DNA from: a virus
Direction: 5' to 3' (one strand)
DNA: 64,000 bases
IMG/VR virus record: IMGVR_UViG_3300037549_000096
The notes under the pieces were generated by a model. The model searched no databases. It was not told the DNA's origin and worked only from the letters and a program-made list of their open reading frames with translations. Below, piece after piece: positions 13,088 to 41,604 of the stretch (positions within the stretch are counted from its first letter, which is position 1; each line of letters starts with the position of its first letter). The position numbers were made by a program, and so were the translations under genes.

Positions 13088-15778
13088 ATGGCTTATATTT
13101 TAAATAGTCCCGTATTTACGGGTAATCCTCAAGCTCCTACTCCTTTAACTGCGGATAATAGCACTAGTCTCGCTACTACTGCATTCGTTAAAGCACAAGG
13201 TTACGGATTAGGTTCTGTAACCGCCATTGGCGTAACTACAGCTAACGGAGTGTCAGGTTCATCTTCGGGTGGATCTACACCTAACTTAACGATTACATTA
13301 GGCGCGATTACTCCGACTAATGTAAATGGTTTAACTTTAACTGCTAACGCAACTGGTTTCCAGATCGCTGGTGGTACGACTAGTAAAACATTGATTGTTC
13401 AGAATAACCTTACTCTCGCTGGTACAGATTTAGCAACTTTGAATATTGGTGGTGGTGGTACTTTAGGTAGTGCTGCTTATACTGCTTCTTCTGCTTATCA
13501 ACCTGTAGCTACTAATTTAACTAGTATTGGTTCATTAGCTAACTCTGCTGGTGTTTTATATAATAATGGTTCTGGAACATTTACTTATGCTGTTTTAGGT
13601 GGAACTGCTCAAGCTGATGCAGGTGCAGGAAGTAATGGAACTGGAACTGCTGTTGCTTTAGCTAATCACGTTCACCCTCTTAGTACTGCTTATGAACCAG
13701 CTTTAGGTAATCCTGGAACTAATGGCTGGATTTTATCTTCAACTACAGCCGGAGTTAGAAGCTGGATAGCGATGACAGCGGGTTTCTCTAACCCAATGAC
13801 AACAACTGGCGATATAATGATCGCTAATCCAACAACTACCGCAGTTAGATTAGGTATTGGTACAACTGGATATGTTTTGACTGTTGTTGGTGGTTTACCT
13901 GCATGGTCTAACACTCCTACCTTAACTGGTACAAATTTTAGTGGTATTGGTAATAGTGCATTAACTAACAATACGGTTACAATTGGCTCTACTTCAGTTG
14001 CTCTTGGTGCTACTGTTACTACGTTTGTTGGTTTAGTATCTGTAACTTCTACTACGTTTGTTGGTGCTTTAACTGGTAACGCTTCAACTTCAACATCATT
14101 AGCAGGTGGTTCTACTGGTGCTTTAGTTTATCAAAGTGGTGCTGGCGCCACAGCTTTCTTAGCTGCTGGTACTTCTTCACAAGTCTTAGTTGGTGGTGCT
14201 TCACTTCCCGCTTGGTCTAATACACCTACATTAACTGGTACTAATTTTACTGGTATTCCCGAATCTGCCGTAACTAACTTAACAACTGACTTAAGTAATA
14301 GAGTATTAATTTCTTCTGTTGGTGTTGCTAATGGCGTTGCTTCACTTGACTCTGGTGGTCATGTACCTTTAGCTCAATTACCTACTGCTATTCAAGGCGC
14401 TTTACAGTATCAAGGTACTTGGAATGCCTCTACAAACACTTCTCCTGCTTTAGCTTCAGGTGTTGGTACTAAAGGTTATTATTATAAAGTATCAGTAGCA
14501 GGTACTACTACTATTGATACTGTCTCTAACTGGAATGTTGGAGATATGATCGTATTCGATGGAACTACCTGGGATAAGATAGATGGTCCTGCTGAAGCTG
14601 TTATTAGCGTTAACGGTTCTATTGGTGCTGTAACGGTAGCAGCAACTAACCAGACCATGTATTTAGGTACTACTGCTTTAACTATTAACGCTACTACTGG
14701 TACACAAAATACTATAGCCGGTATGACTTCAATTACATCAACAACTTTTGTTGGTGCTTTAACTGGTAATGCTTCTACAGCTACTTCATTAAGCGCGGGT
14801 GCTACTGGTTCATTACCTTATCAGTCTGGTGCGGGTGTTACTGCTTATTTAGCAGCGGGTACAGCTTCTCAAGTCTTAATTGGTGGCGCTTCATTACCTG
14901 CCTGGACTAATACTCCTACTTTAACAGGTACTAACTTCACAGGTATTCCTGGTACTGCTATTAATAGTATTGTTGCTACAGCTACATTAGCTTCTACTTC
15001 TACTATAGCTAATGATAATGCTACTAATGCTTCTATGTATCTTACCTGGGTTACTGCTACTACAGGTTCTTTAGCTCTTAAGACTACTACTGCTATTGCC
15101 GTTAATCCTTCGACTGGTATTTTAAGTGCTACTGGCTTTGCTGGTTCTGGTTCTGGTTTAACTTCATTAACTGCTGGTAATTTAAGTGGTACTATTCCTT
15201 CAGGTGTTTTAGGTAACTCTACTGTTTATATTGGTACGACCGCAGTAGCCTTAAATAGAGCCTCTGCCGCTTTAGTTCTCACTGGTATTACTTCAATTGA
15301 TGGTTCTGCTGCTTCTATTAGTGGTAACTTAACTGGTGACGTAACTTCGGTAGGTATGACTACTAGTTTAGCTGCTTCTGTTGTAATGGGTAAAACCTTA
15401 ACTGGTTATAGTGCTGGATCTGATTATACTCAATTAGCTTCTACTGATACATTATTACAAGCTTATCAAAAATTACAATATCAAATTAATGTTAGTATTC
15501 TTCAAGGTATTTCTACTAAGACTACTACTTATAACCCTGTAGTTGTGACTGATAAATTTATTCGTTTAGATGCTACTGGTGGTGCATTTAACGTTACTTT
15601 AATGGCCGCGCCTCCTACTGGTTATTGGTGCGTATTTAAGAAGATTGATTCTACCGCTAATGCGATTACTATTTCTGGTAATGGTAAAACAATTGATGGT
15701 AATGCTTCTGTTACTATTTCTGCTCAATATAATGCATTAGAACTTCAATACAATGGTACAACTTGGGATATCCTGTAA
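13088..15778 (+). CDS. Long tail fibre protein
   Basis: G/T/S/A-rich; PTP..ADNSTSLATTAFV; YQGTWNASTN..GDMIVFDG..WDKID; ~75-aa internal duplication. Confidence 0.8.
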   Translation: MAYILNSPVFTGNPQAPTPLTADNSTSLATTAFVKAQGYGLGSVTAIGVTTANGVSGSSSGGSTPNLTITLGAITPTNVNGLTLTANATGFQIAGGTTSKTLIVQNNLTLAGTDLATLNIGGGGTLGSAAYTASSAYQPVATNLTSIGSLANSAGVLYNNGSGTFTYAVLGGTAQADAGAGSNGTGTAVALANHVHPLSTAYEPALGNPGTNGWILSSTTAGVRSWIAMTAGFSNPMTTTGDIMIANPTTTAVRLGIGTTGYVLTVVGGLPAWSNTPTLTGTNFSGIGNSALTNNTVTIGSTSVALGATVTTFVGLVSVTSTTFVGALTGNASTSTSLAGGSTGALVYQSGAGATAFLAAGTSSQVLVGGASLPAWSNTPTLTGTNFTGIPESAVTNLTTDLSNRVLISSVGVANGVASLDSGGHVPLAQLPTAIQGALQYQGTWNASTNTSPALASGVGTKGYYYKVSVAGTTTIDTVSNWNVGDMIVFDGTTWDKIDGPAEAVISVNGSIGAVTVAATNQTMYLGTTALTINATTGTQNTIAGMTSITSTTFVGALTGNASTATSLSAGATGSLPYQSGAGVTAYLAAGTASQVLIGGASLPAWTNTPTLTGTNFTGIPGTAINSIVATATLASTSTIANDNATNASMYLTWVTATTGSLALKTTTAIAVNPSTGILSATGFAGSGSGLTSLTAGNLSGTIPSGVLGNSTVYIGTTAVALNRASAALVLTGITSIDGSAASISGNLTGDVTSVGMTTSLAASVVMGKTLTGYSAGSDYTQLASTDTLLQAYQKLQYQINVSILQGISTKTTTYNPVVVTDKFIRLDATGGAFNVTLMAAPPTGYWCVFKKIDSTANAITISGNGKTIDGNASVTISAQYNALELQYNGTTWDIL

Positions 15779-15781
15779 ACA

Positions 15782-16822
15782 ATGGCTTATATTGTAAATA
15801 GCCCAACGTTTAGCGGGACTGTTACAAGTCTTGGGCCTATTTCGTTAGCGGCTTCCCAAGGTATAGTAGTTGCATCTGGCGCTCCAGGTGTGACTACTAA
15901 TACCTTATATCAAATTGCAGGAACGTTATATTTTAACGGTAATTCTGTTGGTGGTATTGGTGCTTCTTATAGTCAAACAATTGGTAATGGAGCTTTAACT
16001 TCTATTGTTGTTACTCATGGTTTGGGGACTACAGATATAAATGTAACTGTTTGGGAATTAGGTGGTAGTAAACGAAACGTAACTGCTGCTATTGAAATAC
16101 AAAATACTAGTTCTACTCAAATTACTTTAATATTTGCTACTGCTCCTGCTACTAATTCATTACGTGTAGATATTACACCTTTAGGTACTTCTGGTAGTTA
16201 TACGTTAACAGATGACACGGCAACAAATGCTACTTATTACCCAGTAGTAGCTACGGCTTCTGGTGGTTCTACTTTAAAAACTTCATCAACTAAGTTAAGT
16301 TATAATCCATCTACTGGAAATCTCGTATCCACAAGTCATAATAGTGTAGTTATTACTCCACCTGCCACTACTGCTACTTTAACTTTAGCAAATAACTCTT
16401 CTTTAATTACTTCTGGAGCTTATTCTACTACTCTTACGGTTACGGGTACAACTACTTTAACTTTACCTACTAGTGGCACTCTCGCTACTACTTCACAAAT
16501 ACAAGGTGTTACAACTGTAAGTTTTGCTTCTACGATTAATCTAGATTTAACTACTATTCCAGGTCCAGTAGCTAGAATAACTTTAACAGGAACATGTACT
16601 ATAAATATCACTAATGGATCTGATGGTCAAAAAGTATTATTAGAATTACTTCAAAATGGAACGGGAACATACGTGGTTACATTAGGAACTGGTTGGGCTT
16701 ACGGGACTGATATTACAAGTTATACTAATACATTAACAGCCAGTAAGCGAGATATTTTAGGATTAGAATATAATTCATCACTTTCAAAAGCTATGTTAAT
16801 CGCTGTAGCTCACGGATATTAA
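15782..16822 (+). CDS. Tail fibre protein
   Basis: N-term MAYIVNSP matches 13088; shares modules with 17502. Confidence 0.7.
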   Translation: MAYIVNSPTFSGTVTSLGPISLAASQGIVVASGAPGVTTNTLYQIAGTLYFNGNSVGGIGASYSQTIGNGALTSIVVTHGLGTTDINVTVWELGGSKRNVTAAIEIQNTSSTQITLIFATAPATNSLRVDITPLGTSGSYTLTDDTATNATYYPVVATASGGSTLKTSSTKLSYNPSTGNLVSTSHNSVVITPPATTATLTLANNSSLITSGAYSTTLTVTGTTTLTLPTSGTLATTSQIQGVTTVSFASTINLDLTTIPGPVARITLTGTCTINITNGSDGQKVLLELLQNGTGTYVVTLGTGWAYGTDITSYTNTLTASKRDILGLEYNSSLSKAMLIAVAHGY

Positions 16823-23914: not shown

Positions 23915-24219
23915 TTTGTTTATCTATTTTATTATCTGTAACACATATTTATCCTTCTATGCCTATTATTCCTTTGCCTAATATTAAATTAGATATTAAT
24001 CTTAATGAATTAGTGTTATTTATTGAAAAAAATATGAAAGATAAAGAAATTAGCATTGAAGTAGAAGATGAAAATTTTAATGAAGTTTATTCAAGTACAT
24101 TTTTAAAACTAATTATTAGAACTTCAACTTATTTTGAAAATCAAGGTTATACAGTAATGATAACTGATACAAAAAATCCTCATATTATTTCTTTTACTAT
24201 TTCTAAAAAGAACAAATGA
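23911..24219 (+). CDS. Hypothetical protein
   Basis: ATGA coupling on both sides. Confidence 0.5.
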   Translation: MICLSILLSVTHIYPSMPIIPLPNIKLDINLNELVLFIEKNMKDKEISIEVEDENFNEVYSSTFLKLIIRTSTYFENQGYTVMITDTKNPHIISFTISKKNK

Positions 24220-24884
24220 ATAACATCGAACTATATCAACAATCTCAATCACCACAACTCGCTCAATTACTCTTGGACGAAAATAGAGATACTATAAATA
24301 AACATGTAAATAAATGGAAAGGTGTTCTTCCTGATATAGTTATTCAAAAACATGCAGAAAAATATGCTTTAGATGCTTTTAAGACATATGATCCATCTAA
24401 AGGTGCATCACTTCATACACATATGTTTAATCATCTTAGTAAATTATCACGATTAAATTATGACAATCAGAATGTAGTTAAGATTCCTGAACATCAGATT
24501 CTTCAAATTCGTAATTACCATGATTCAGTTGCTCATTTAACTGATCAATTAGGATATGCGCCAAGTCATGAAGAAATTGCTGATCATATGATACTTCCAG
24601 TATCACATGTAAAACGATTATCTGAAAATGTTAATCGAAAGGATTATACTTATGATTCAGATCATGAAGATTTGCAGCAAAGAGATATCGAATCTAATCC
24701 TAAATCTCTTTATATTCAAGATGTTTTTAGCCATCTTAACAAAAAACAAAAACAACAATTCCAAGATCTTACTGGATTTAATGGTGCGCCGATTTTAAAA
24801 CCTAGTGAGTTTGGTAAGAAACATAACATGAAACCGTTTGAAGTTTCTAGAGTGAAAATGACGTTAGCTAAGAAGTTTAAATAG
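24216..24884 (+). CDS. Phage sigma-70 family RNA polymerase sigma factor
   Basis: Region 2 AFKTYDPSKGASLHTH, VVKIP, region 3 QLGYAPSHEEIADHM, C-terminal HTH EFGKKHNMKPFEVSRV. Confidence 0.8.
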   Translation: MNNIELYQQSQSPQLAQLLLDENRDTINKHVNKWKGVLPDIVIQKHAEKYALDAFKTYDPSKGASLHTHMFNHLSKLSRLNYDNQNVVKIPEHQILQIRNYHDSVAHLTDQLGYAPSHEEIADHMILPVSHVKRLSENVNRKDYTYDSDHEDLQQRDIESNPKSLYIQDVFSHLNKKQKQQFQDLTGFNGAPILKPSEFGKKHNMKPFEVSRVKMTLAKKFK

Positions 24885-32717: not shown

Positions 32718-33548
32718 ATGTCAAATACTGTTAATCATCCAGAATTATATGTTCATCTTTATCCTGAAGTAGTAAAATTATATACTGAAGAAAATTTAAC
32801 AGCTAAACAAATATCTGAAAAACTTAATATAGGAGCTACTACAGTTAATAGAATTTTAAAACGTAATAATATAGATATGAATAGAATTTATCATAATAAA
32901 TATTATTTTAATGAGAATGCTTTTGATTCTAATAATCCTGAAACAGCTTATTGGATAGGATTTTTATTAACAGATGGATGTGTTCATGAATATACTACTA
33001 AACATTGCTCACCTTGTATAACCTTACAATTAAAAGAAAGTGATAAATCTATTCTTGAAGAATATGCTAAATTTTTAGAATATCAAGGACTAATTACTCA
33101 AGATAAAATTAAACGATGGAAAATATCAATTAATTCTTATAAATTAGCAGAAGATTTAATTAAGTTTAATGTTACTCCAAGAAAAACCTTTTATGCTAAA
33201 GCGCCAGAAATTTTTGAAGATAATAATCTATTTTGGCGTGGTGTAATGGACGGTGATGGAAGTATGTGGTCAGGAGAAAAAGGAATTTTAAGAATAAATT
33301 TAACATCTGCTTCTTTAGATTTAATAGAACAGTTTCAAGAATATTGTAATAATATTTTAGATAATTCTTCTAACGTAAATATTACTTCTTTCTTTACTAA
33401 AGAAGAAAATGAAATGTATAGGGTTGTTTATACAGGAAATTTTGCTTTAAGAATTTTAGATATAATATATAAAGATAATGGACCTAAATTAGATAGAAAA
33501 TATAATAAATATATTAGTTATAAGGAAAATAACTATGCCTTGGTCTAA
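32718..33548 (+). CDS. Free-standing LAGLIDADG homing endonuclease with N-terminal HTH
   Basis: YWIGFLLTDGCV and FWRGVMDGDGSM; HTH AKQISEKLNIGATTVNRIL. Confidence 0.85.
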   Translation: MSNTVNHPELYVHLYPEVVKLYTEENLTAKQISEKLNIGATTVNRILKRNNIDMNRIYHNKYYFNENAFDSNNPETAYWIGFLLTDGCVHEYTTKHCSPCITLQLKESDKSILEEYAKFLEYQGLITQDKIKRWKISINSYKLAEDLIKFNVTPRKTFYAKAPEIFEDNNLFWRGVMDGDGSMWSGEKGILRINLTSASLDLIEQFQEYCNNILDNSSNVNITSFFTKEENEMYRVVYTGNFALRILDIIYKDNGPKLDRKYNKYISYKENNYALV

Positions 33549-33720
33549 AGAAAATCCTCCCGAAGCTGTTAAATTTTTTAAACCATCTATTCAAAAACAT
33601 GCAATTAGAATAGCTAATGCTATTTTGGAAAAAACTAATAATGAATCTTTAGCAATTGCTACTGGTATTAAAAAAGCAAAGGAATTACATATTAAATCAT
33701 TCAAAAAATCAACAAAATGA
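33535..33720 (+). CDS. DUF2188/YdaT (ChaB-like) small protein
   Basis: MPWS..PP.....AIRIANAIL....E..AIATG pattern. Confidence 0.6.
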   Translation: MPWSKENPPEAVKFFKPSIQKHAIRIANAILEKTNNESLAIATGIKKAKELHIKSFKKSTK

Positions 33721-33736
33721 TTTACAGATAATCATA

Positions 33737-33745
33737 TGGTATACT
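33737..33745 (+). promoter_or_regulatory. Extended -10 element upstream of RNAP
   Basis: TGGTATACT; no good -35. Confidence 0.45.
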
Positions 33746-33747
33746 GT

Positions 33748-33779
33748 AAGGGTCGCATAGCTGTGACCCTTTCTTGTTT
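33748..33779 (+). terminator. Stem-loop / terminator
   Basis: AAGGGTCGCA-TAGC-TGTGACCCTT (one G-U pair), then a T-rich run. Confidence 0.6.
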
Positions 33780-33790
33780 AGGATTAAACA

Positions 33791-36700
33791 ATGTTAGAAG
33801 CATCAGAAATTATTAACAACATGAAACAAGGTATCAAAGAATCAATTGATTCTTTAGGTAAGATAGAAGCTGGCGGTAAAACTCTTGAATTTCAAAATGT
33901 GCATTTTGAGGATCATGATCCTCGTATTTCTGTAGACTTTGAAAAGCATAAACAAGCTAAACTTCATAATAAAACTTTAGGTATTGGTGTTTACGCAGAT
34001 GCTCATGTAACTGAAAATGGTAATACTTCTGTTGAAAAAGTAAAAATTGGTAATATGCCAGTTCCTACTTCAACGGGTGATTTTATCGTTGATGGTAATT
34101 CGTATAATATTGATTATCAGTTTAGACTTAAACCCGGTGCATATCTAAGAAAAAAGCAGAATGGTGAAATTGAAACCCATATCAATCCGATAGGGTTTCC
34201 TAATGCTAGAGTTACGATTGACCCTAAAACTTTAGGTCTTAGTGTAGGTATAGGTCAGGCTAATATTAACGCATTAGCTTTCTTACATGCTTTAGACGTT
34301 ACTACTGCTGAACAAGAACACATCCTTGGATCTGATATTTATAAAGCAAATTTAAATAAGTTAAACTTAGATAAAGAATTATCTAAACTTGAACAATCAA
34401 TTTCAAAAGGTGAAAAATTAGATAAAGGTCAATTATCTAAACTTCTTAAAGAGAAACTTGATACTGCTAAACTTGATCCAAGAGTTACCGGGATTACACT
34501 AGGAAAGCCCTTCAAAGACTTAGGGGCTGGCACTATCAAAGCAATTATACAAAAGACAATAGCTGGTTCTAAGGGTTTGGTAGAACCTGACGAACGTGAT
34601 GCTATGGCTTTTAAAAATGTATTTGCAGTAGATGATTTTGTTAAAGAACGTTTAAGTGGTCGAAATAAATACCAATTAGCATGGCAGGTTAAATCAGCAC
34701 TTGTTAAAGATAAACCGATTAAAGAATCCCTTTCTTCAAAATTCTTAGACTCAATGATTCATCCTTTGTTTACTTCTTCAGCTATTTCTGAGTTTTCTTC
34801 TAGAACTAATCAACTTCAACAATTAGGTGCGTTCCGCAAAGTCACTTCTACAGGTGAAGGCGGAATTATGAACGAACAAGCTATTACTACCGATATGCAA
34901 GCTGTTCATCCTACTCAAGCTTATTTTGTAGATCCTTTAAATACGCCCGAATCACAAAAAGCTGGTATTGCTGTTCAATTTACTCATGACGTTGAAATTA
35001 AAGATCATGAAGCTCATGCTCCATTTATTAATACTAAAACAGGTAAACGAGAATTAAAATCATCTATTGACTTATTTAATGAACATGTTTTACTGCCTGG
35101 TGCCGCTTCTCCAGATGGAACGATAGCAGCTATTCATAAGGGTAAACAAATTCAGGTTAAGCCCGAACAGATCACCTATAAACCTATTCACATTCATCAA
35201 GCATTTTCAGAAGGTGCTTTGATTGCGCCTGCTTTAAATTATAATCAAGGTTCTCGCGCTTCTATGAGAACTAGACACGCTGCACAAGCCGTATCTTTAG
35301 TAGATCGTGAAGCTCCCTTAGTTCAATCACTTCATCCAAGTGGTAGTACTTATGAACAAGAAGTAGCTAAGAAGATGGCGTTAATTGCGCCTGAAGATTT
35401 AACTTTCGTAGAAAAGAAAAATGATCGATTATTCTTTAAAACAAAAGATAATAAATTAGTAGATTCAGCTTTCTGGAATCATGATGTTGGAACGAATAAA
35501 TCTTTTATTAATCACGAAACTGATCATTTAACTCCTGGGATGAAGTTCACTCAAGGACAAATTATTGCTGATAGTAATTTTACGAAGAATGGAACTTTGG
35601 CATTAGGTAAGAATTTAAAAACTGCCTATATGCCCTGGCATGGTTTGAATTTTGAAGATGGTATTATTGTATCTGAATCAGGTGCTAAAAAGTTAACTTC
35701 TCAACATATGGCTCAACATGATTTTGACGTTCATAATGGCGTTACGAGAATGTCAAAAGCCGCTTATTTAGCTATGTTCCCTGGTAAATATACCAAAGAA
35801 CAATTAGATAAATTAGATGAAAATGGCGTAGCAAAACAAGGTATTGTTTTACAACCCGGCGATCCCATGCATTTAAAGATAGATAAACATCAAGGAACTA
35901 AAGAAGATGCTATCTTGGGTAGATTACATAAATCTTTAGTAAGTCCTTATAGGGATCATTCAGAAGTTTGGACTCATGTAACTCCTGGTACAGTAGTTGA
36001 CTCTGTATTAGATAAAACATTCGGTAAAATTAATGTTAAATATGAAGCCCCTGCACAAGTTGGTGATAAATTAGCTAATCGACACGGTGCTAAAGGTGTG
36101 ATATCTGCCATTATTCCTGATATTGAAATGCCTCAAAACAAAAAGAATGAAGTAACTGATGTTATTATTTCTCCTATGTCAGTTATTAGTCGTATGTCGA
36201 TGGGTCAGATTTTAGAAACTGCTGCTAGTAAGATTGCTAAAAAAACAGGTGAAACTTATAAGATTGGATCTTTTGATAATAAGGATCATGTTAGTCGGAT
36301 TCAACATGATTTAGCTAAACATAAACTATCTGATACTGAAGAACTTTTTGATAAACAAACAGGTCATTCATATGGAAAGATTTTAACTGGTTATCCTATT
36401 ATGCAAAAGTTGTTCAAATTGTCTCACGGCAATTTATCAGCTAGAGAATTAGGCGCATATGATTCAGATCATCAACCTATGCGGGGTGGTGATACTGGAT
36501 CTAAAGCTATTGATCAATTAACTCTTTACGGATTACTAGCTCATGGTCATCGTAATATCTTAAATGAAATTTCTACAGTTAAGGGTGATTATAATCCTGA
36601 TTTTTGGCAACGATTACAAATGGGATTACCATTACCTAAACCACAAACTCCGTTTGTTTATAAAAAATTTGAAGGTTTATTAGCTGCGTCTGGTGTTAAC

Positions 36701-39700
36701 GTTCGTCAAGATGGAAGTCAAAAGATTTTAGCTCCATTTACCGATAAAGATACAGACGCCATTGCTGGTGAAAATCATATTCAGAATTTTAAAATGTTGA
36801 ATTATGATATGGAGCCAGTTAAAGGTGGTTTATTTGATACTCAAATTACTGGTGGAATGAAAGGTACTAAATGGGCTAAATTTACTTTACCTAATGCAAT
36901 ACCTAATCCTTTATTTGAAACAGCTATTAAGAATATTTTAACAATAGATGATAAAACATTTAAAGGATTGCTTAATCACACTGTTAACGTAAATGGCAAA
37001 ACTGGTCATGAAGCTTTTGAGTCAATGTTAGGTAATATTCAAGTAAAACAGGAAATTGATTCTACTAAACAAGCTTTAAAAACAGCTACTAAAACAGGTA
37101 AAGATAAGTATCTTAAGAAGTTAAAACTTCTTAAAGCTCTTGAATCACAAAAACTGCATCCTAAAGATGCTTATATGATGAGTAAAGTCCCTGTGGTTCC
37201 CCCACAGTTTAGACCTGTTATTCAATTACCAAATGGTTCTTTATCTAAATCTAGTTTAAATATTCTTTATCGTGATGCTGGCTTAGTCGCTGGATCTATT
37301 AAGGAGCATGGGTTAGATGGAGATTTATATTCTGCTCTGTATCATTCTGTGGGTGCTATACAAGGCGTTAAAGACCCTATTAGCCCTCAAGCACAAAAAC
37401 AAAATGTTAAAGGAGCAATCCAGATCATTACAGGGTCTACTCCAAAGACCGGATTCTTCCAGTCTAAAGTAATTCGTAAACAACAAGACTTATCAGCCAG
37501 AGCTACGATAGCCTTGGATAATAATCTACATATGGATCAAATATCTATTCCTATAGATATGGCTAAATCAATTTATAAACCATTTGCAACTAAATTATTA
37601 ATTGATCAAGGTTATTCAGCTAAAGATGCTCATGACCATATTGATAAGTGGTCACATATTGGTAAAATTGCTATTATGAATGAAATGAATCAACGTCCGA
37701 TCATGATGAATCGTGCGCCTTCACTTCATCGTTTTTCAATTATGTCATTTAAGCCTACAGTTAATACTACTGATTCTACTGTATTAATTCCTGGTCTAAT
37801 CGTTAAACCATTTGGCGCTGACTTTGATGGTGATACCGTCATGCTTCATGTGCCTGTAGGTGAAAAAGCTAGAAAAGAAGCATTAAAGATGCTTCCTTCT
37901 AATAATTTATATAATGCTAAAGCTATGGACTTAAATTATACTCCTGATCAAGAATCGATCATGGGTTTACATTTAATGTCACATACTGCTAATGGTCGTA
38001 AATACTTTAATTCTTTATTACCTGCTTCTGTATCTAAAGTTACAGGTATTATGAAGAAAGAAGACATACATCAACGATTAGCTGAAGTAGCTGCTAAACA
38101 CCCTCATGAATATAATACTATTGCTACTAAGTTAAAAGAAGAAGGTGACAAGTTTGCAACATTGGCTGGTTTCTCAATTGGTTTGAAAGATATGAAACCA
38201 GTCAATGGAGAAAATGTTAAAAAGATTTATTCTAAAGCTATGCTTAAGCCTGGAGATAAATTAAAAAATCTTTTAGAAGCAGATGATTTTATTAAGAATC
38301 ATTCAACTGATGATAAAACTAATAATTATGTTAAAATGGTTACTTCACAATCCAAGGGAAATAAAGAGAATTTAAAACAGATTCTCTTTGCTCCTGGTAT
38401 TATGAAAGATCATAATGATCAGCCTATTCTTAGACCAGTTATGTCTAATTATGGTTCTGGAGTCGATTTTGCTGATTTCTGGACCGCTGGTTATGGCGCT
38501 CGTAAGGGTACTTTAGATCGGCAAATGTCAACCGCTAGACCTGGTGCTTTAAATAAGGAAATCGTTAATACATCAATGGCTATTGTTGTGTCGGAGAATG
38601 ATTGTGGTACGACAAATGGTATCTCTATTTCTGCAAAAGATCCTCACGTTCTTGGAAGATATGATGCTGAGTCTGGCAAACTTATTACGAAAGACTTATT
38701 AAAGAATAAAAAAGATATTATTGTACGTTCGCCTATTACTTGTGAAGCTACAAGAGGCGTTTGTAAGAAGTGTTATGGTCATGATGAATTTGGATCGATG
38801 CCAGATATAGGCCGGAATGTGGGTATTGTGTCGGCTCAAGCGATGTCAGAACCATTAACGCAAGCAGCTATGAAAACCTTTCATATGGGCGGAACGGTTT
38901 CAGGGGGCGGAGGGGCGTTTGGAGGGTTTGAAACGATTGAGCGGTTCTTAAAGGCTCCTAAAACTTTTAAAAACAAAGCTGTCTTAGCTAGAGAAGATGG
39001 AATAATTCATAGTATTAACCCTGGTGCTGCTGGTGGTTTTAATATTATGATTAATGAACAAGAACATTTCATTCATCCAGATGCTTCAGGTGAGTTATTA
39101 GTTAGAAAAGGACAAAAAGTAAATCGAGGCGATTTACTTAATGTAGGTATACCTCATCCTGAAGAAGCTTTAGATATATTAGGACCAATCAAAGGTAGTC
39201 ATTTAGTAGTTGATACGCTTCATAAACTTTATAAAGCGAGTGATATTAAAATCAATCGCCGTAATTTAGAAACAGTTATAAGAGGATTAACTGGTTTTGC
39301 TAAAGTGACTGATCCAGGTACATCTAAAACGTATGTCGAAAATGATGTAACTTCATTATCTAACGTTATGAAGTTTAATAAAGAAGCGAATAAATCTATG
39401 TCCTTGCCAATCCAGGAAAGTCATGGGATGATATTATCTGAGTCAATTGCAGGCATTAAGGCAGGTACTTCTCTTGACTTTAATCATTTGAAACATTTGG
39501 AAAAAGCTGGTCATAAACATATCGATGTTTATCACCAACCTATTCAATTTGATAGAATTTATATCGGAACTGATAAAGCCCCTAACAAATCTACCGATTG
39601 GTTAGGTGGTTTGAGCTTCAGATATCTTAAGAGAGGTATTGAAACTGGAGCTATGCATAGTCATATGTCTGATACTCATGGGTATCATCCTATGGCACCA

Positions 39701-39745
39701 TTTGTAACAGGCGAATTACAACATCATTCAGATGGTACTTACTAA
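33791..39745 (+). CDS. rpoBC: Single-chain fused beta-beta' DNA-directed RNA polymerase
   Basis: Beta: TPESQKAG, AYMPWHGLNFEDGI, GDKLANRHGAKGV, SVISRM. Beta': VPVVPPQFRP, NRAPSLHR, ADFDGD, GARKG..D, RSPITC..GVCKKCYG, SEPLTQAAMKTFHMGG. Confidence 0.95.
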   Translation: MLEASEIINNMKQGIKESIDSLGKIEAGGKTLEFQNVHFEDHDPRISVDFEKHKQAKLHNKTLGIGVYADAHVTENGNTSVEKVKIGNMPVPTSTGDFIVDGNSYNIDYQFRLKPGAYLRKKQNGEIETHINPIGFPNARVTIDPKTLGLSVGIGQANINALAFLHALDVTTAEQEHILGSDIYKANLNKLNLDKELSKLEQSISKGEKLDKGQLSKLLKEKLDTAKLDPRVTGITLGKPFKDLGAGTIKAIIQKTIAGSKGLVEPDERDAMAFKNVFAVDDFVKERLSGRNKYQLAWQVKSALVKDKPIKESLSSKFLDSMIHPLFTSSAISEFSSRTNQLQQLGAFRKVTSTGEGGIMNEQAITTDMQAVHPTQAYFVDPLNTPESQKAGIAVQFTHDVEIKDHEAHAPFINTKTGKRELKSSIDLFNEHVLLPGAASPDGTIAAIHKGKQIQVKPEQITYKPIHIHQAFSEGALIAPALNYNQGSRASMRTRHAAQAVSLVDREAPLVQSLHPSGSTYEQEVAKKMALIAPEDLTFVEKKNDRLFFKTKDNKLVDSAFWNHDVGTNKSFINHETDHLTPGMKFTQGQIIADSNFTKNGTLALGKNLKTAYMPWHGLNFEDGIIVSESGAKKLTSQHMAQHDFDVHNGVTRMSKAAYLAMFPGKYTKEQLDKLDENGVAKQGIVLQPGDPMHLKIDKHQGTKEDAILGRLHKSLVSPYRDHSEVWTHVTPGTVVDSVLDKTFGKINVKYEAPAQVGDKLANRHGAKGVISAIIPDIEMPQNKKNEVTDVIISPMSVISRMSMGQILETAASKIAKKTGETYKIGSFDNKDHVSRIQHDLAKHKLSDTEELFDKQTGHSYGKILTGYPIMQKLFKLSHGNLSARELGAYDSDHQPMRGGDTGSKAIDQLTLYGLLAHGHRNILNEISTVKGDYNPDFWQRLQMGLPLPKPQTPFVYKKFEGLLAASGVNVRQDGSQKILAPFTDKDTDAIAGENHIQNFKMLNYDMEPVKGGLFDTQITGGMKGTKWAKFTLPNAIPNPLFETAIKNILTIDDKTFKGLLNHTVNVNGKTGHEAFESMLGNIQVKQEIDSTKQALKTATKTGKDKYLKKLKLLKALESQKLHPKDAYMMSKVPVVPPQFRPVIQLPNGSLSKSSLNILYRDAGLVAGSIKEHGLDGDLYSALYHSVGAIQGVKDPISPQAQKQNVKGAIQIITGSTPKTGFFQSKVIRKQQDLSARATIALDNNLHMDQISIPIDMAKSIYKPFATKLLIDQGYSAKDAHDHIDKWSHIGKIAIMNEMNQRPIMMNRAPSLHRFSIMSFKPTVNTTDSTVLIPGLIVKPFGADFDGDTVMLHVPVGEKARKEALKMLPSNNLYNAKAMDLNYTPDQESIMGLHLMSHTANGRKYFNSLLPASVSKVTGIMKKEDIHQRLAEVAAKHPHEYNTIATKLKEEGDKFATLAGFSIGLKDMKPVNGENVKKIYSKAMLKPGDKLKNLLEADDFIKNHSTDDKTNNYVKMVTSQSKGNKENLKQILFAPGIMKDHNDQPILRPVMSNYGSGVDFADFWTAGYGARKGTLDRQMSTARPGALNKEIVNTSMAIVVSENDCGTTNGISISAKDPHVLGRYDAESGKLITKDLLKNKKDIIVRSPITCEATRGVCKKCYGHDEFGSMPDIGRNVGIVSAQAMSEPLTQAAMKTFHMGGTVSGGGGAFGGFETIERFLKAPKTFKNKAVLAREDGIIHSINPGAAGGFNIMINEQEHFIHPDASGELLVRKGQKVNRGDLLNVGIPHPEEALDILGPIKGSHLVVDTLHKLYKASDIKINRRNLETVIRGLTGFAKVTDPGTSKTYVENDVTSLSNVMKFNKEANKSMSLPIQESHGMILSESIAGIKAGTSLDFNHLKHLEKAGHKHIDVYHQPIQFDRIYIGTDKAPNKSTDWLGGLSFRYLKRGIETGAMHSHMSDTHGYHPMAPFVTGELQHHSDGTY

Positions 39746-39759
39746 CTGGAGAAAGTTAA

Positions 39760-41604
39760 ATGTTAAAAGAAGCTTTTATTACTGATATGTTTCCTACTGA
39801 ACAAAAGGTTAGGCTTTCTGAGAATTCAGCAGCTTGGCCCGAAACTATCAATTCTTTAATTTTACGTAAATATCCTGAATTAGCTAATTATATTGATAAA
39901 ATTGTCTTTAGTCATTTAGATAAGATTAAAGGTAATTCTATTGGATATGTTACGACGATTAATAATATTTTTAAAATTCCATTTGTCGTAGATAAGTTTA
40001 CTCTTAGTCCTCTTGATGTTTTTATTAAGGGTAATGTTTATGGTCATCTTTCAACTGATTCTATTAAAAAGTTAGTATCGAATTCTTGGCCTTTTAAACA
40101 AGTTAGCAAGAATGATTTTGTACAATTAAAAAAGTTAGCGGCTACAAGTCTTACTGATATTGATGTTGAAACTATTACAAAAAATCCAGAACTTGTTAAA
40201 TTAGCTGAAGAATTAGCTAATGAATACCCTGAAGTAATTATTAATTTAAGTACGAATTTAGATAATGTACAAATATTGAAACAAGCTGGTCTTGATCCTT
40301 ATGGTCATGAAAAAGTAGCTGCTTTAGAATTAAATCATACTAGAACTGGTATTATTTTACAACATTTTGGCAAAGTAGATGAAACGCTTTCTTTAGGTGA
40401 ATGTGCAGCTAGATTCGGGGAAGAGAAAGTAGCACAAGTTTTATATCATGGTTATATTCCTACTGTACTTCGTGAAATCATGGTTAAGACAGCCGATGAA
40501 CTTAATCCTATTCAATTTAAATTTGATGTTAACTTACCTAGAACAGTAAATATCGCTGACGGTGTTGGTGGTTTCGTTCGTGGTAATATGTATGAACTTA
40601 GAGATATTAAAACTCCAAATAGAAAAGAAGGTCATATTTTCTTAAGTACTCGCGCTAAAGATCCTGTTTATATGACAATCTTTACGCCTCCTGCTAAAGA
40701 CCGTATTTATTCAATTGCAGAACGAGCTACTTTAGGTGATATCGTAGATGATCTTTCTAGGTCTTCTGGTAAGGCGGGACAAGCTTTAGCTATCTTATTA
40801 GGTGATATCGTTTATGGTCCCTTTGATTTAATCACTGAAGCTGTTAACGGAAATACTCATATTCTCTCTATTAAAGATGGTTATGAATATGATTCTAAAC
40901 GTATTCATATTACTAATGATGTTAAATCAATCGTTGTTGAAGGTGATGAGATTTACGTGCCTAAACATGCGAAAGTTTTATGTTTAGGTGAACCTTATCA
41001 AATGGAGCATCCATTACACAAAGCCGCTGCTCTTGCTGTAACGGTAGCTGTTTCTCCTGATAAGCAATCTTATAATATTATCGATGCAGGTGTAAGCGGA
41101 TTACCTGCTGGATCTTTACAGAATATTAAGAAAACTAAAGCAACGACAGCTTTAATGCATTGCGGATTGAGCGAAGTGGAAGCTAAACAGGCTCTTTCTA
41201 ATGCAGCGACTACTGGTGTTCATAAATTTAACGCTACTCCTACTGCTACTCAATCTGAAACTCAAACTAGAGATGAAGTACAATCATTATCTAGTAAGAA
41301 AATTTTAGAGAAGAAAGCTGAAATGATTCGTAAGATTATGGAAAAATCAGAGTTTATTAAAATAGCCATGAATTACGGAGATGAAGAAAGTGTGGATATG
41401 GCACTTGGTCTTAATTTAGTAACTCCTACTAGCGTCAAAAAATATCGTATTTTGATTCCGAAAATTGAAGATACGATTGACGGTTTGAGTAAATTACTTA
41501 TGGCAAAACGTGTAGGTGGTTCTATAATTCCTTTAGACGAAGGTAAGCTTACCTCCGCTATTTCAGATCTTCATACCGTCATGTGTGAACTCACCGGGAT
41601 CTAG
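39760..41604 (+). CDS. Large hypothetical protein rich in K-x-A motifs (putative head/internal protein)
   Basis: GGAG RBS; MLKEA, KKLA, VKLA, LKQA, EKVA x2, VKTA, HKAA, EKKA, IKIA. Confidence 0.6.
   Translation: MLKEAFITDMFPTEQKVRLSENSAAWPETINSLILRKYPELANYIDKIVFSHLDKIKGNSIGYVTTINNIFKIPFVVDKFTLSPLDVFIKGNVYGHLSTDSIKKLVSNSWPFKQVSKNDFVQLKKLAATSLTDIDVETITKNPELVKLAEELANEYPEVIINLSTNLDNVQILKQAGLDPYGHEKVAALELNHTRTGIILQHFGKVDETLSLGECAARFGEEKVAQVLYHGYIPTVLREIMVKTADELNPIQFKFDVNLPRTVNIADGVGGFVRGNMYELRDIKTPNRKEGHIFLSTRAKDPVYMTIFTPPAKDRIYSIAERATLGDIVDDLSRSSGKAGQALAILLGDIVYGPFDLITEAVNGNTHILSIKDGYEYDSKRIHITNDVKSIVVEGDEIYVPKHAKVLCLGEPYQMEHPLHKAAALAVTVAVSPDKQSYNIIDAGVSGLPAGSLQNIKKTKATTALMHCGLSEVEAKQALSNAATTGVHKFNATPTATQSETQTRDEVQSLSSKKILEKKAEMIRKIMEKSEFIKIAMNYGDEESVDMALGLNLVTPTSVKKYRILIPKIEDTIDGLSKLLMAKRVGGSIIPLDEGKLTSAISDLHTVMCELTGI

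Follow-up and report, generated by a model that had tools for sequence, protein, structure and literature searches.

How a tailed phage might run transcription with a cellular-type RNA polymerase whose two large subunits form a single polypeptide, and whether such a fusion does the work of the alpha subunit, are the questions raised by a gene at 33791-39745 in IMG/VR virus record IMGVR_UViG_3300037549_000096. We analyzed a 64,000-nucleotide stretch of this record (the window) together with the record as a whole, a peat phage genome of 168,567 bp with a CheckV completeness of 100%. The explanation that best accounts for the data, and which we regard as probable, is that the phage has its own polymerase of the bacterial beta/beta' type, whose entire catalytic core is made by this gene as one chain and which would be served by the phage's sigma-like protein, dispense with an alpha/omega platform and be insensitive to rifampicin.

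Analysis of open reading frames (ORFs) gave a single forward-strand frame of 1984 amino acids without an internal stop, and the Pfam matches run along the chain in the order beta (Rpb2) domains, then beta' (Rpb1) domains: Rpb2_3 at residues 335-402 (34.4 bits against a cut-off of 21), Rpb2_6 at 586-899 (1e-49, 170 bits against 23.4), Rpb1_1 at 1083-1163 (under its cut-off), Rpb1_2 at 1293-1367 (81 bits against 25.3) and Rpb1_5 at 1557-1844 (80 bits against 28.5), with Rpb1_4 also matched, so that four of the six Rpb1/Rpb2 families exceeded their cut-offs. The original prediction, made from the letters of the window, had read beta motifs followed by beta' motifs in one 1984-residue frame, about 765 residues shorter than E. 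coli beta plus beta'; the open frame and the domain order bear this out, and the arithmetic is correct (2749 - 1984). In the Pfam alignments and in BLASTP against the Salmonella subunits, similarity to the bacterial proteins spans nearly the whole length of the polymerase. The cut-offs of the NCBIfam models were not reached (rpoC, 380 bits against 963.5; rpoB, 242-257 bits against 801-896), and the nearest solved structures of the beta'-like half are bacterial beta' chains (E about 1e-75). The parts of the gene are as follows:

33791..39745, + strand: polymerase gene, a 1984-residue single-chain beta-beta' protein with Pfam Rpb2 followed by Rpb1 domains
33791..36703, + strand: beta-like half, residues 1-971, 25-30% identical to Salmonella beta in conserved blocks (BLASTP), containing the fork and rifampicin-pocket region (residues 327-355) and the beta double-psi barrel
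36062..36097, + strand: beta active-site motif GDKLANRHGAKG, residues 758-769, with the equivalents of E. coli K1065 and K1073
36722..39742, + strand: beta'-like half, residues 978-1984, 27-32% identical to Salmonella beta' (BLASTP), containing the clamp helices, NRAPSLH (1307-1313), bridge helix GARKG (1569-1573), trigger-loop MKTFHMGG (1694-1701) and a second zinc site (C1605, C1651, C1658, C1661)
37814..37834, + strand: catalytic Mg-binding motif GADFDGD, residues 1342-1348

Conservation was assessed in 30 family members that are 31-80% identical to the peat-phage polymerase. The three aspartates of the Mg-binding motif (D1344, D1346 and D1348) are invariant, as are D759, K760 and K768 of the beta motif GDK...KG, and the invariant residues also include NRAPSLH, the bridge-helix arginine and trigger-loop H1698. 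The cysteines of the second zinc site are near-invariant, and the site is retained in 34 of 36 fused members. Since the double-psi barrels, catalytic aspartates, beta lysines, bridge helix, trigger loop and second zinc site are all retained, the protein would be expected to synthesize RNA by the standard two-metal mechanism. Searching the 168,567-bp genome with the polymerase protein returned no second copy of the gene, and a hidden second two-barrel polymerase was rejected, as no other ORF of at least 500 residues in the genome carries a DxDGD-like motif.

The point at which the two halves meet had been placed near 36690-36760, where LLAASGVNV is joined to KILAPFTDKD through RQDGSQ, and residue mapping agrees: the three segments are residues 963-971 (nucleotides 36677-36703), 978-987 (nucleotides 36722-36751) and 972-977, respectively. 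The junction itself is:

36692..36736, + strand: GVNVRQDGSQKILAP, residues 968-982, where beta is covalently joined to beta'; a hairpin of two strands in the model

In an AlphaFold2 model of residues 700-1420 (mean predicted local distance difference test score (pLDDT) 85.7; predicted template modelling score (pTM) 0.73), the hairpin is formed by strands 969-974 and 977-982, where 10-residue blocks have a mean pLDDT of 87-95, and the beta' part of the model resembles the beta' chains of solved structures from bacteria and cyanobacteria (Foldseek, E about 1e-25). The counterparts of the two strands in the bacterial enzyme are the strand that ends beta (GINIEL in E. coli) and the one that opens beta' (IKIALASP). 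The length of the junction is constant in the 30 family members, with G975 and P982 invariant. The model thus suggests that the hairpin is the former inter-subunit strand pair: the last beta strand and the first beta' strand, which are paired between subunits in cellular enzymes, would here have been joined and closed by a tight DG turn.

The whole stretch lies within one contig of the source peat metagenome, and a metatranscriptomic library from a different study contains contigs identical to it over the polymerase gene, one of which (34376-38128) spans the junction with zero differences. Because this independent contig crosses the junction without a difference, and because the layout is widespread, the junction is not an assembly chimera.

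The layout is indeed common to hundreds of uncultured phages, phage polymerases of multisubunit type being as such already known, and the family is both very large and constrained in sequence. We found 745 proteins at E<=1e-10 within the length range of the fusion, mostly of 1975-2110 residues; longer family proteins carry intein or LAGLIDADG domains. An exhaustive HMMER search with the beta' half gave 2481 matches at E<=1e-30, and among the best 150 representatives of 50%-identity clusters, 128 are at least 1900 residues long with the beta' half at about 1000-2000; a strict pattern recovered both catalytic motifs in beta-then-beta' order in 92 of these 128. ORF maps covered 82 related loci, and each of the 80 IMG/VR loci that were kept has beta in the same frame as the beginning of beta'. 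A single ORF of 1975-2266 residues was found in 47 loci, a longer single ORF of the size of intein-bearing proteins in 11, and a gene cut by the contig end but still spanning the junction in three. Eight loci were partly split, with beta and the N-terminal part of beta' in one protein (about 1460-1990 residues) and a separate gene for the C-terminal part of beta', usually of about 606-650 residues and 1-4 kb away; in a further nine the first of two partly split ORFs alone was visible, and the remaining two contained in-frame TGA codons. Two apparent "beta prime only" genes at 50% identity (P0121 and P0122) were rejected as truncated fusions that start no more than 30 nucleotides from a contig end. 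The position at which the partly split genes divide beta' is uninterrupted in the peat phage:

37973..38002, + strand: beta' re-split position of the Arash/Vibrio-type sub-clade, residues about 1395-1404, continuous in the peat phage

Several further observations concern the family. All in-frame stops are TGA, with five in one locus (L060, 10001-15982, the last near the gene end) and one in another (L029, 9935-16240), which points to phages or hosts in which TGA encodes an amino acid. Many members reach 2300-3200 residues through inteins (PF14890, PF14528 and PF05204; P0036, P0063, P0078, P0120, L063, L089 and others), so the polymerase gene is a hotspot for selfish elements; the peat-phage polymerase has no internal intein, the sole endonuclease being a free-standing one upstream. 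The family occurs across many habitats, and a few of its contigs lie in bins of unrelated organisms, phage binning being unreliable. One fused polymerase of 1985 residues, 39% identical to that of the peat phage (P0037), is encoded on a 79-kb contig deposited as part of a "Halobacteriota archaeon" metagenome-assembled genome (MAG), and this contig is either mis-binned phage DNA or a hint of archaeal hosts.

Most of the compactness of the enzyme consists in the lack of insertions specific to the E. coli lineage. The family lacks E. coli beta 225-351 (SI1), 950-1045 (SI2) and 1134-1178 as well as beta' 943-1134 (SI3), and these four segments are likewise missing in many bacteria. Two beta' segments that are missing in the family, 66-99 and 150-175, are present in all sampled bacteria. 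The first of these is the N-terminal zinc ribbon, the sole universal bacterial element that is lost:

36848..36874, + strand: site of the missing zinc ribbon, TGGMKGTKW, residues 1020-1028, replacing about 33 residues with four cysteines

The corresponding segment holds no cysteine in any of 36 fully fused and seven partly split members, and 4-6 cysteines in all 30 bacteria and in the phages Carin-5 and YerA41; in all 43 phage enzymes with the junction, two or three residues stand where the zinc ribbon was. By these sequence comparisons the clade of these 43 has two shared derived characters, a covalent junction of fixed length and an exact loss of the zinc ribbon. The rifampicin pocket is also altered: in the BLASTP alignment with Salmonella beta, E. 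coli D516 corresponds to S337, H526 to A347, S531 to T352 and Q513 to E334. With three key rifampicin-contact residues replaced, the polymerase is predicted to be insensitive to this drug.

We examined the position of the family in trees from concatenated beta and beta', built with FastTree (75 rows, 1868 columns) and with IQ-TREE under LG+G4 (47 rows, 1802 columns); these were quick, unrooted searches with long branches and with a composition that differs in many rows. In both trees, the 30 bacteria, drawn from many phyla, lie on one side of a branch with a support of 100, and the 43 junction-bearing phage enzymes form one clade (support 100), whose diversity is greater than that of the sampled bacteria. 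Within the phage clade, all partly split enzymes fall into a single sub-clade (98-99) whose sister group is the fully fused type (91), and a whole and a split ancestral beta' are not distinguishable from the trees. The nearest outgroup of the clade is the pair Carin-5 and YerA41, on a very long branch (1.4-1.5). Among the GTDB species genomes a single true member of the family appeared, on a 204-kb contig that had been binned with a Bacteroidales MAG. The remaining matches there were all cellular rpoB-rpoC loci of 23-28% identity, distributed evenly across Patescibacteria, Bacillota, Bacteroidota, Planctomycetota, Pseudomonadota, Aquificota and others. An archaeal outgroup was sought in a MAG labelled Nitrosopumilus and rejected, since it yielded only a bacterial-type rpoC. 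This 5.2-Mb "Nitrosopumilus sp." MAG (L139, CAXQOB010000160.1, genome G001) carries a Planctomycetota-like rpoB-rpoC, and the bin is mislabelled or contaminated. Ordinary bacterial rpoB-rpoC genes also occur in several records filed as phages (for example L087, MT836236.1, "Bacteriophage sp."; Acinetobacter phage MD-2021a; various Listeria, Staphylococcus and Enterococcus "phage" contigs), and all of these are bacterial contamination of the phage collection.

The closest known relatives are the cultured myoviruses Salmonella phage Arash and Vibrio phages D69, D148 and D181 (180-187 kb), which fall in the same clade as the peat phage (support 100). Their enzymes (Gp206 and Gp216 in Arash) have the same beta-to-beta' junction, also lack the zinc ribbon and are about 30-33% identical to that of the peat phage; Arash and Vibrio D69 likewise have no alpha, and Arash encodes a sigma factor (PMC10585845). 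They differ in that beta' is cut at residue about 1400, so that the first protein (1525 residues for Arash Gp206) is completed by a second gene of about 606 residues at a distance of up to 5 kb. In the sequence records the first protein is named "beta subunit" or "hypothetical" but not a fusion, and the fusion is unremarked in the Arash paper (PMC10585845). In virion proteomics of Arash, the two polymerase proteins and the sigma factor were among the proteins with most spectra, Gp206 having the most of all, with Gp216 and the sigma factor Gp10 also found (PMC10585845).

Cobetia phage Carin-5 (L088:2811-9636) and Yersinia phage YerA41 (L169:1065-7775) resemble the peat phage in encoding a bacterial-type enzyme without alpha. 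In contrast to the fused clade, they retain the zinc ribbon and have separate genes in the order sigma-like, beta', beta, the reverse of the bacterial and fused order, and the beta' of YerA41 is further split. The gene directly upstream is annotated as a sigma factor in Carin-5 and as hypothetical in YerA41, where it is 636 nucleotides long; all polymerase genes of the two phages are labelled "beta subunit" in the record.

Cellular-type beta/beta' enzymes that branch outside cellular lineages, termed mReC, have been described from large metagenomic tailed phages (PMC7481178). The smaller mReC type, with beta of about 1000 and beta' of about 905 residues, comes near the 1984 residues of the peat-phage protein, but the listed enzymes are all two separate proteins of at least 800 residues each, with no chain of about 2000 residues among them (PMC7481178). 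Some of the same metagenomes (for example 3300017989 and 3300018080) do contain fused members, yet these are unlisted. The mReC filter motif was NADxDGD (PMC7481178); the peat phage has GADFDGD and the family consensus is NADFDGD. A link between the fused clade and the mReC lineage is plausible from a comparison with the published description only; an IMG/VR search for mReC-type two-gene enzymes with Carin-5 and YerA41 as seeds gave no relatives, or alignments that were too divergent.

Jumbo-phage enzymes of the phiKZ/AR9 type share with the peat phage beta/beta' homologues and the lack of alpha and omega (PMC7598289), but consist of 4-5 polypeptides and have no sigma homologue (PMC7598289, PMC7824862), whereas the peat phage has a single chain and a sigma-like gene; PHROG families of this type were matched far less strongly (1e-14 to 1e-27) than the best families (1e-59 to 1e-86). 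The crAss-like gp66, the tape-measure-fused RNA polymerase of P23-45 and YonO also hold both barrels in one polypeptide, some of them virion-borne, but have no detectable COG or Pfam beta/beta' similarity beyond the catalytic motifs (PMC7481178). The fused RpoBC of Helicobacter/Campylobacter relatives and of Wolbachia is one polypeptide with the same beta-beta' order, of about 2840-2890 residues against 1984, and the cut-offs of the corresponding models are far from reached by the phage protein. These cellular enzymes have retained alpha and omega as well as the zinc ribbon. The cellular and the phage fusions are independent.

An initiation factor for the polymerase may be encoded in the same window:

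24216..24884, + strand: the sole sigma-70-like gene of the genome, 222 residues, candidate initiation factor

That a sigma gene lies at 24216 was part of the original prediction and holds in so far as the protein is a real match to the sigma-70 family, albeit a weak one: phrog_351 sigma factor was matched at 1.1e-8 and FliA/WhiG of NCBIfam at 3.8e-5, while Pfam Sigma70_r3 reached 23.9-25.2 bits, about at its cut-off of 25.3, and region 4 reached 12.6 bits. A region 2.2-like motif and a C-terminal helix-turn-helix were seen by eye. Models of the sigma-like protein in complex with polymerase residues 976-1400 gave an interaction prediction score from aligned errors (ipSAE) of 0.76-0.77 in three runs, against 0.00 for the best control; the docking mark is one reached by 58 of 80 solved complexes and by two of 110 mismatched pairs. 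The runs share at least 46% of contacts, the partner pLDDT is at least 73, and the modelled interface joins the clamp helices (residues 1143-1200) to residues 35-49 and 84-91 of the sigma-like protein. As sigma region 2 on the clamp helices is a textbook, often-solved interface, this pass may merely reflect likeness to solved holoenzymes, and it is this likeness, not binding, that the models show.

No alpha or omega gene had been recognizable in the window, and a profile search extended this result to the complete genome, where alpha (PF01000, PF01193) and omega (PF01192) had no match at E<=1 while 14 of 14 controls were positive. Alpha was likewise absent from five further family genomes of 91-100% completeness, including two of the partly split type (L073 and L074), and from Arash, Vibrio D69, Carin-5 and YerA41; from a bacterial MAG that was searched alongside, its own rpoA was recovered. 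With no phage homologue of either subunit, the core most likely folds and works without such a platform. Promoter recognition would most likely fall to the sigma-like protein, seated on the beta' clamp helices as in bacteria, and the polymerase would probably transcribe phage genes independently of the host enzyme.

Several points weigh against this explanation. Alpha and omega could still be provided by the host. Pfam detected no sigma region 2 in the 222-residue protein, a borderline family match that could instead redirect the host polymerase. The RNA-library contigs may derive from carried-over DNA and permit no ranking of expression. The trees hold no archaeal, eukaryotic, mReC or phiKZ sequences, so that "outside bacteria" means outside the 30 sampled. 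Finally, 116 of the 272 Arash proteins were assigned to the virion, and lysate contamination is possible (PMC10585845).

An alternative, or an addition, to an enzyme made after infection is a virion polymerase that is packaged in the capsid and injected for early transcription. The polymerase gene stands in the same same-strand block as PHROG matches to tail proteins (13088-16822), the Arash polymerase gene adjoins the portal gene, the peat-phage genome has just one polymerase of this type, and Gp206, Gp216 and Gp10 were recovered from Arash virion preparations. On the other hand, that proteome is perhaps contaminated, as noted above, and the N-terminus of the peat-phage polymerase has no MIIKLA tag, a candidate capsid-targeting signal. 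We consider packaging slightly less likely than not.

The original prediction had further proposed that the fusion replaces alpha-mediated assembly, the covalent link making the alpha dimer dispensable by taking over its role as an assembly platform. Every member of the clade has the junction, always at the same length, and no alpha homologue was found in any of the eight clade phage genomes examined. However, the unfused Carin-5 and YerA41 are equally without alpha, as is the sub-clade that re-splits beta' at residue about 1400 (L073, L074, Arash and Vibrio D69), and the fragmented phiKZ/AR9 enzymes are also reported to lack it (PMC7598289). Because the loss of alpha is common to unfused relatives, the proposal is unsupported. 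Both the naturally fused Helicobacter enzyme and an artificially tethered E. coli beta::beta' still use alpha. Alpha can thus be absent without fusion and used despite it, so fusion is neither necessary nor sufficient for its loss, and we consider this role of the link unlikely.

Less likely again is a hybrid enzyme, in which the phage catalytic chain is completed by a host alpha dimer, host omega or both. This would fit the lack of phage alpha and omega and the best matches of the enzyme, which are bacterial. Bacterial beta and beta' are no more than 23-28% identical to the phage chain, however, and a conserved interface for host alpha seems unlikely in a family spread over so many habitats and found in bins of unrelated organisms, unreliable as that binning is; in addition, the non-virion enzymes of AR9 and phiKZ are reported to be active without extra subunits such as alpha (PMC7598289). 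We regard such recruitment as improbable and retain the single-chain core without a platform as the preferred explanation.

A recent capture of the gene, with either the rpoBC operon of a bacterium or a fused cellular rpoBC of the Helicobacter/Wolbachia type as its source, for which the beta-then-beta' order of the bacterial operon and the existence of fused cellular forms (NCBIfam PRK09603 and PRK14844) would speak, is excluded by sequence comparison and already contradicted by the low and evenly spread identity of the closest cellular matches, by the scores against the two fused cellular models (369.5 bits against 5372 and 344.8 against 4632), by the greater diversity within the phage clade and by the 30 bacteria forming one clade a long branch away, the branching inside a bacterial clade that had been named as the sign of such a capture not being seen.

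The surroundings of the gene contain a homing endonuclease, a hairpin and a companion gene:

32718-33548: LAGLIDADG homing endonuclease gene, directly upstream of the polymerase gene
33748..33771, + strand: GC-rich 10-bp hairpin followed by a T-rich run, 20 nucleotides before the start codon (pattern scan)
39760..41604, + strand: companion gene of 614 residues, starting 14 nucleotides past the polymerase stop

Upstream of 32522, one contig of the RNA library no longer follows the window (178 unlike letters), so the block of small genes before the endonuclease is different in a strain variant. After the endonuclease stop, 170 nucleotides (33549-33721) read open up to a TGA at 33719-33721, and this tail may be the remnant of a gene interrupted by the endonuclease. 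The hairpin is preceded by TTTACA-N13-TGGTATACT, and the element as a whole (33720-33781) ends 10 nucleotides before the polymerase start. A terminator-like element before a large gene is odd, and by its sequence it could be an attenuator or a structure of the 5′ untranslated region.

Of 83 related loci, 33 have a BLASTP homologue of the companion on the downstream side of the polymerase gene, and we consider the companion a candidate polymerase-associated subunit. It matched no family in Pfam, PHROGs or NCBIfam and had no usable Atlas match. Its AlphaFold2 model is poor overall (mean pLDDT 63, pTM 0.37), with a confident N-terminal domain (residues 15-105, pLDDT above 90); a fold assignment by wide structural search was rejected, since it returned only a generic C-terminal helical hairpin (Z <=8.2), the usual background. 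A shared phage promoter motif was sought in 69 upstream regions and also rejected, the spacings of the enriched TTGAC-like words and GTATAC being inconsistent. The palindrome GTATAC itself occurs in 10 of the 69 regions against 1.2 expected (for example C1:85149-85184, 8627, 130957 and 162959), once as an inverted pair, GGTATACA...TGTATACC, and may serve as a promoter element or as an operator to which a phage regulator binds.

In the literature outside subscription journals, we found no paper that describes a beta-beta' fusion polymerase from tailed phages. For annotation, the consequence is that hundreds of metagenomic proteins, together with those of Arash and Vibrio D69, D148 and D181, are labelled "beta", "beta prime" or "hypothetical" though they comprise both subunits, and that surveys requiring two separate matches, such as the mReC screen, list no fused forms. 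An alpha-like platform is needed by all cellular multisubunit polymerases, and how phage enzymes manage without it is an open question (PMC7598289). A natural and widespread one-gene version that keeps its dependence on sigma would be a tractable model for this question of alpha-free assembly, as one ORF and one small factor could be expressed and their structure solved, and it would also be a candidate for an orthogonal, probably rifampicin-insensitive transcription system with sigma-type promoters. More tentatively, and with some reserve, we suggest that the peat-phage enzyme is an autonomous core of cellular type that folds without alpha, omega or the zinc ribbon and is run by a minimal sigma. 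If this is true, it would be the smallest complete sigma-dependent transcription machine known, possibly delivered with the virion, and this phage family may have the simplest cellular-type polymerase that uses sigma.

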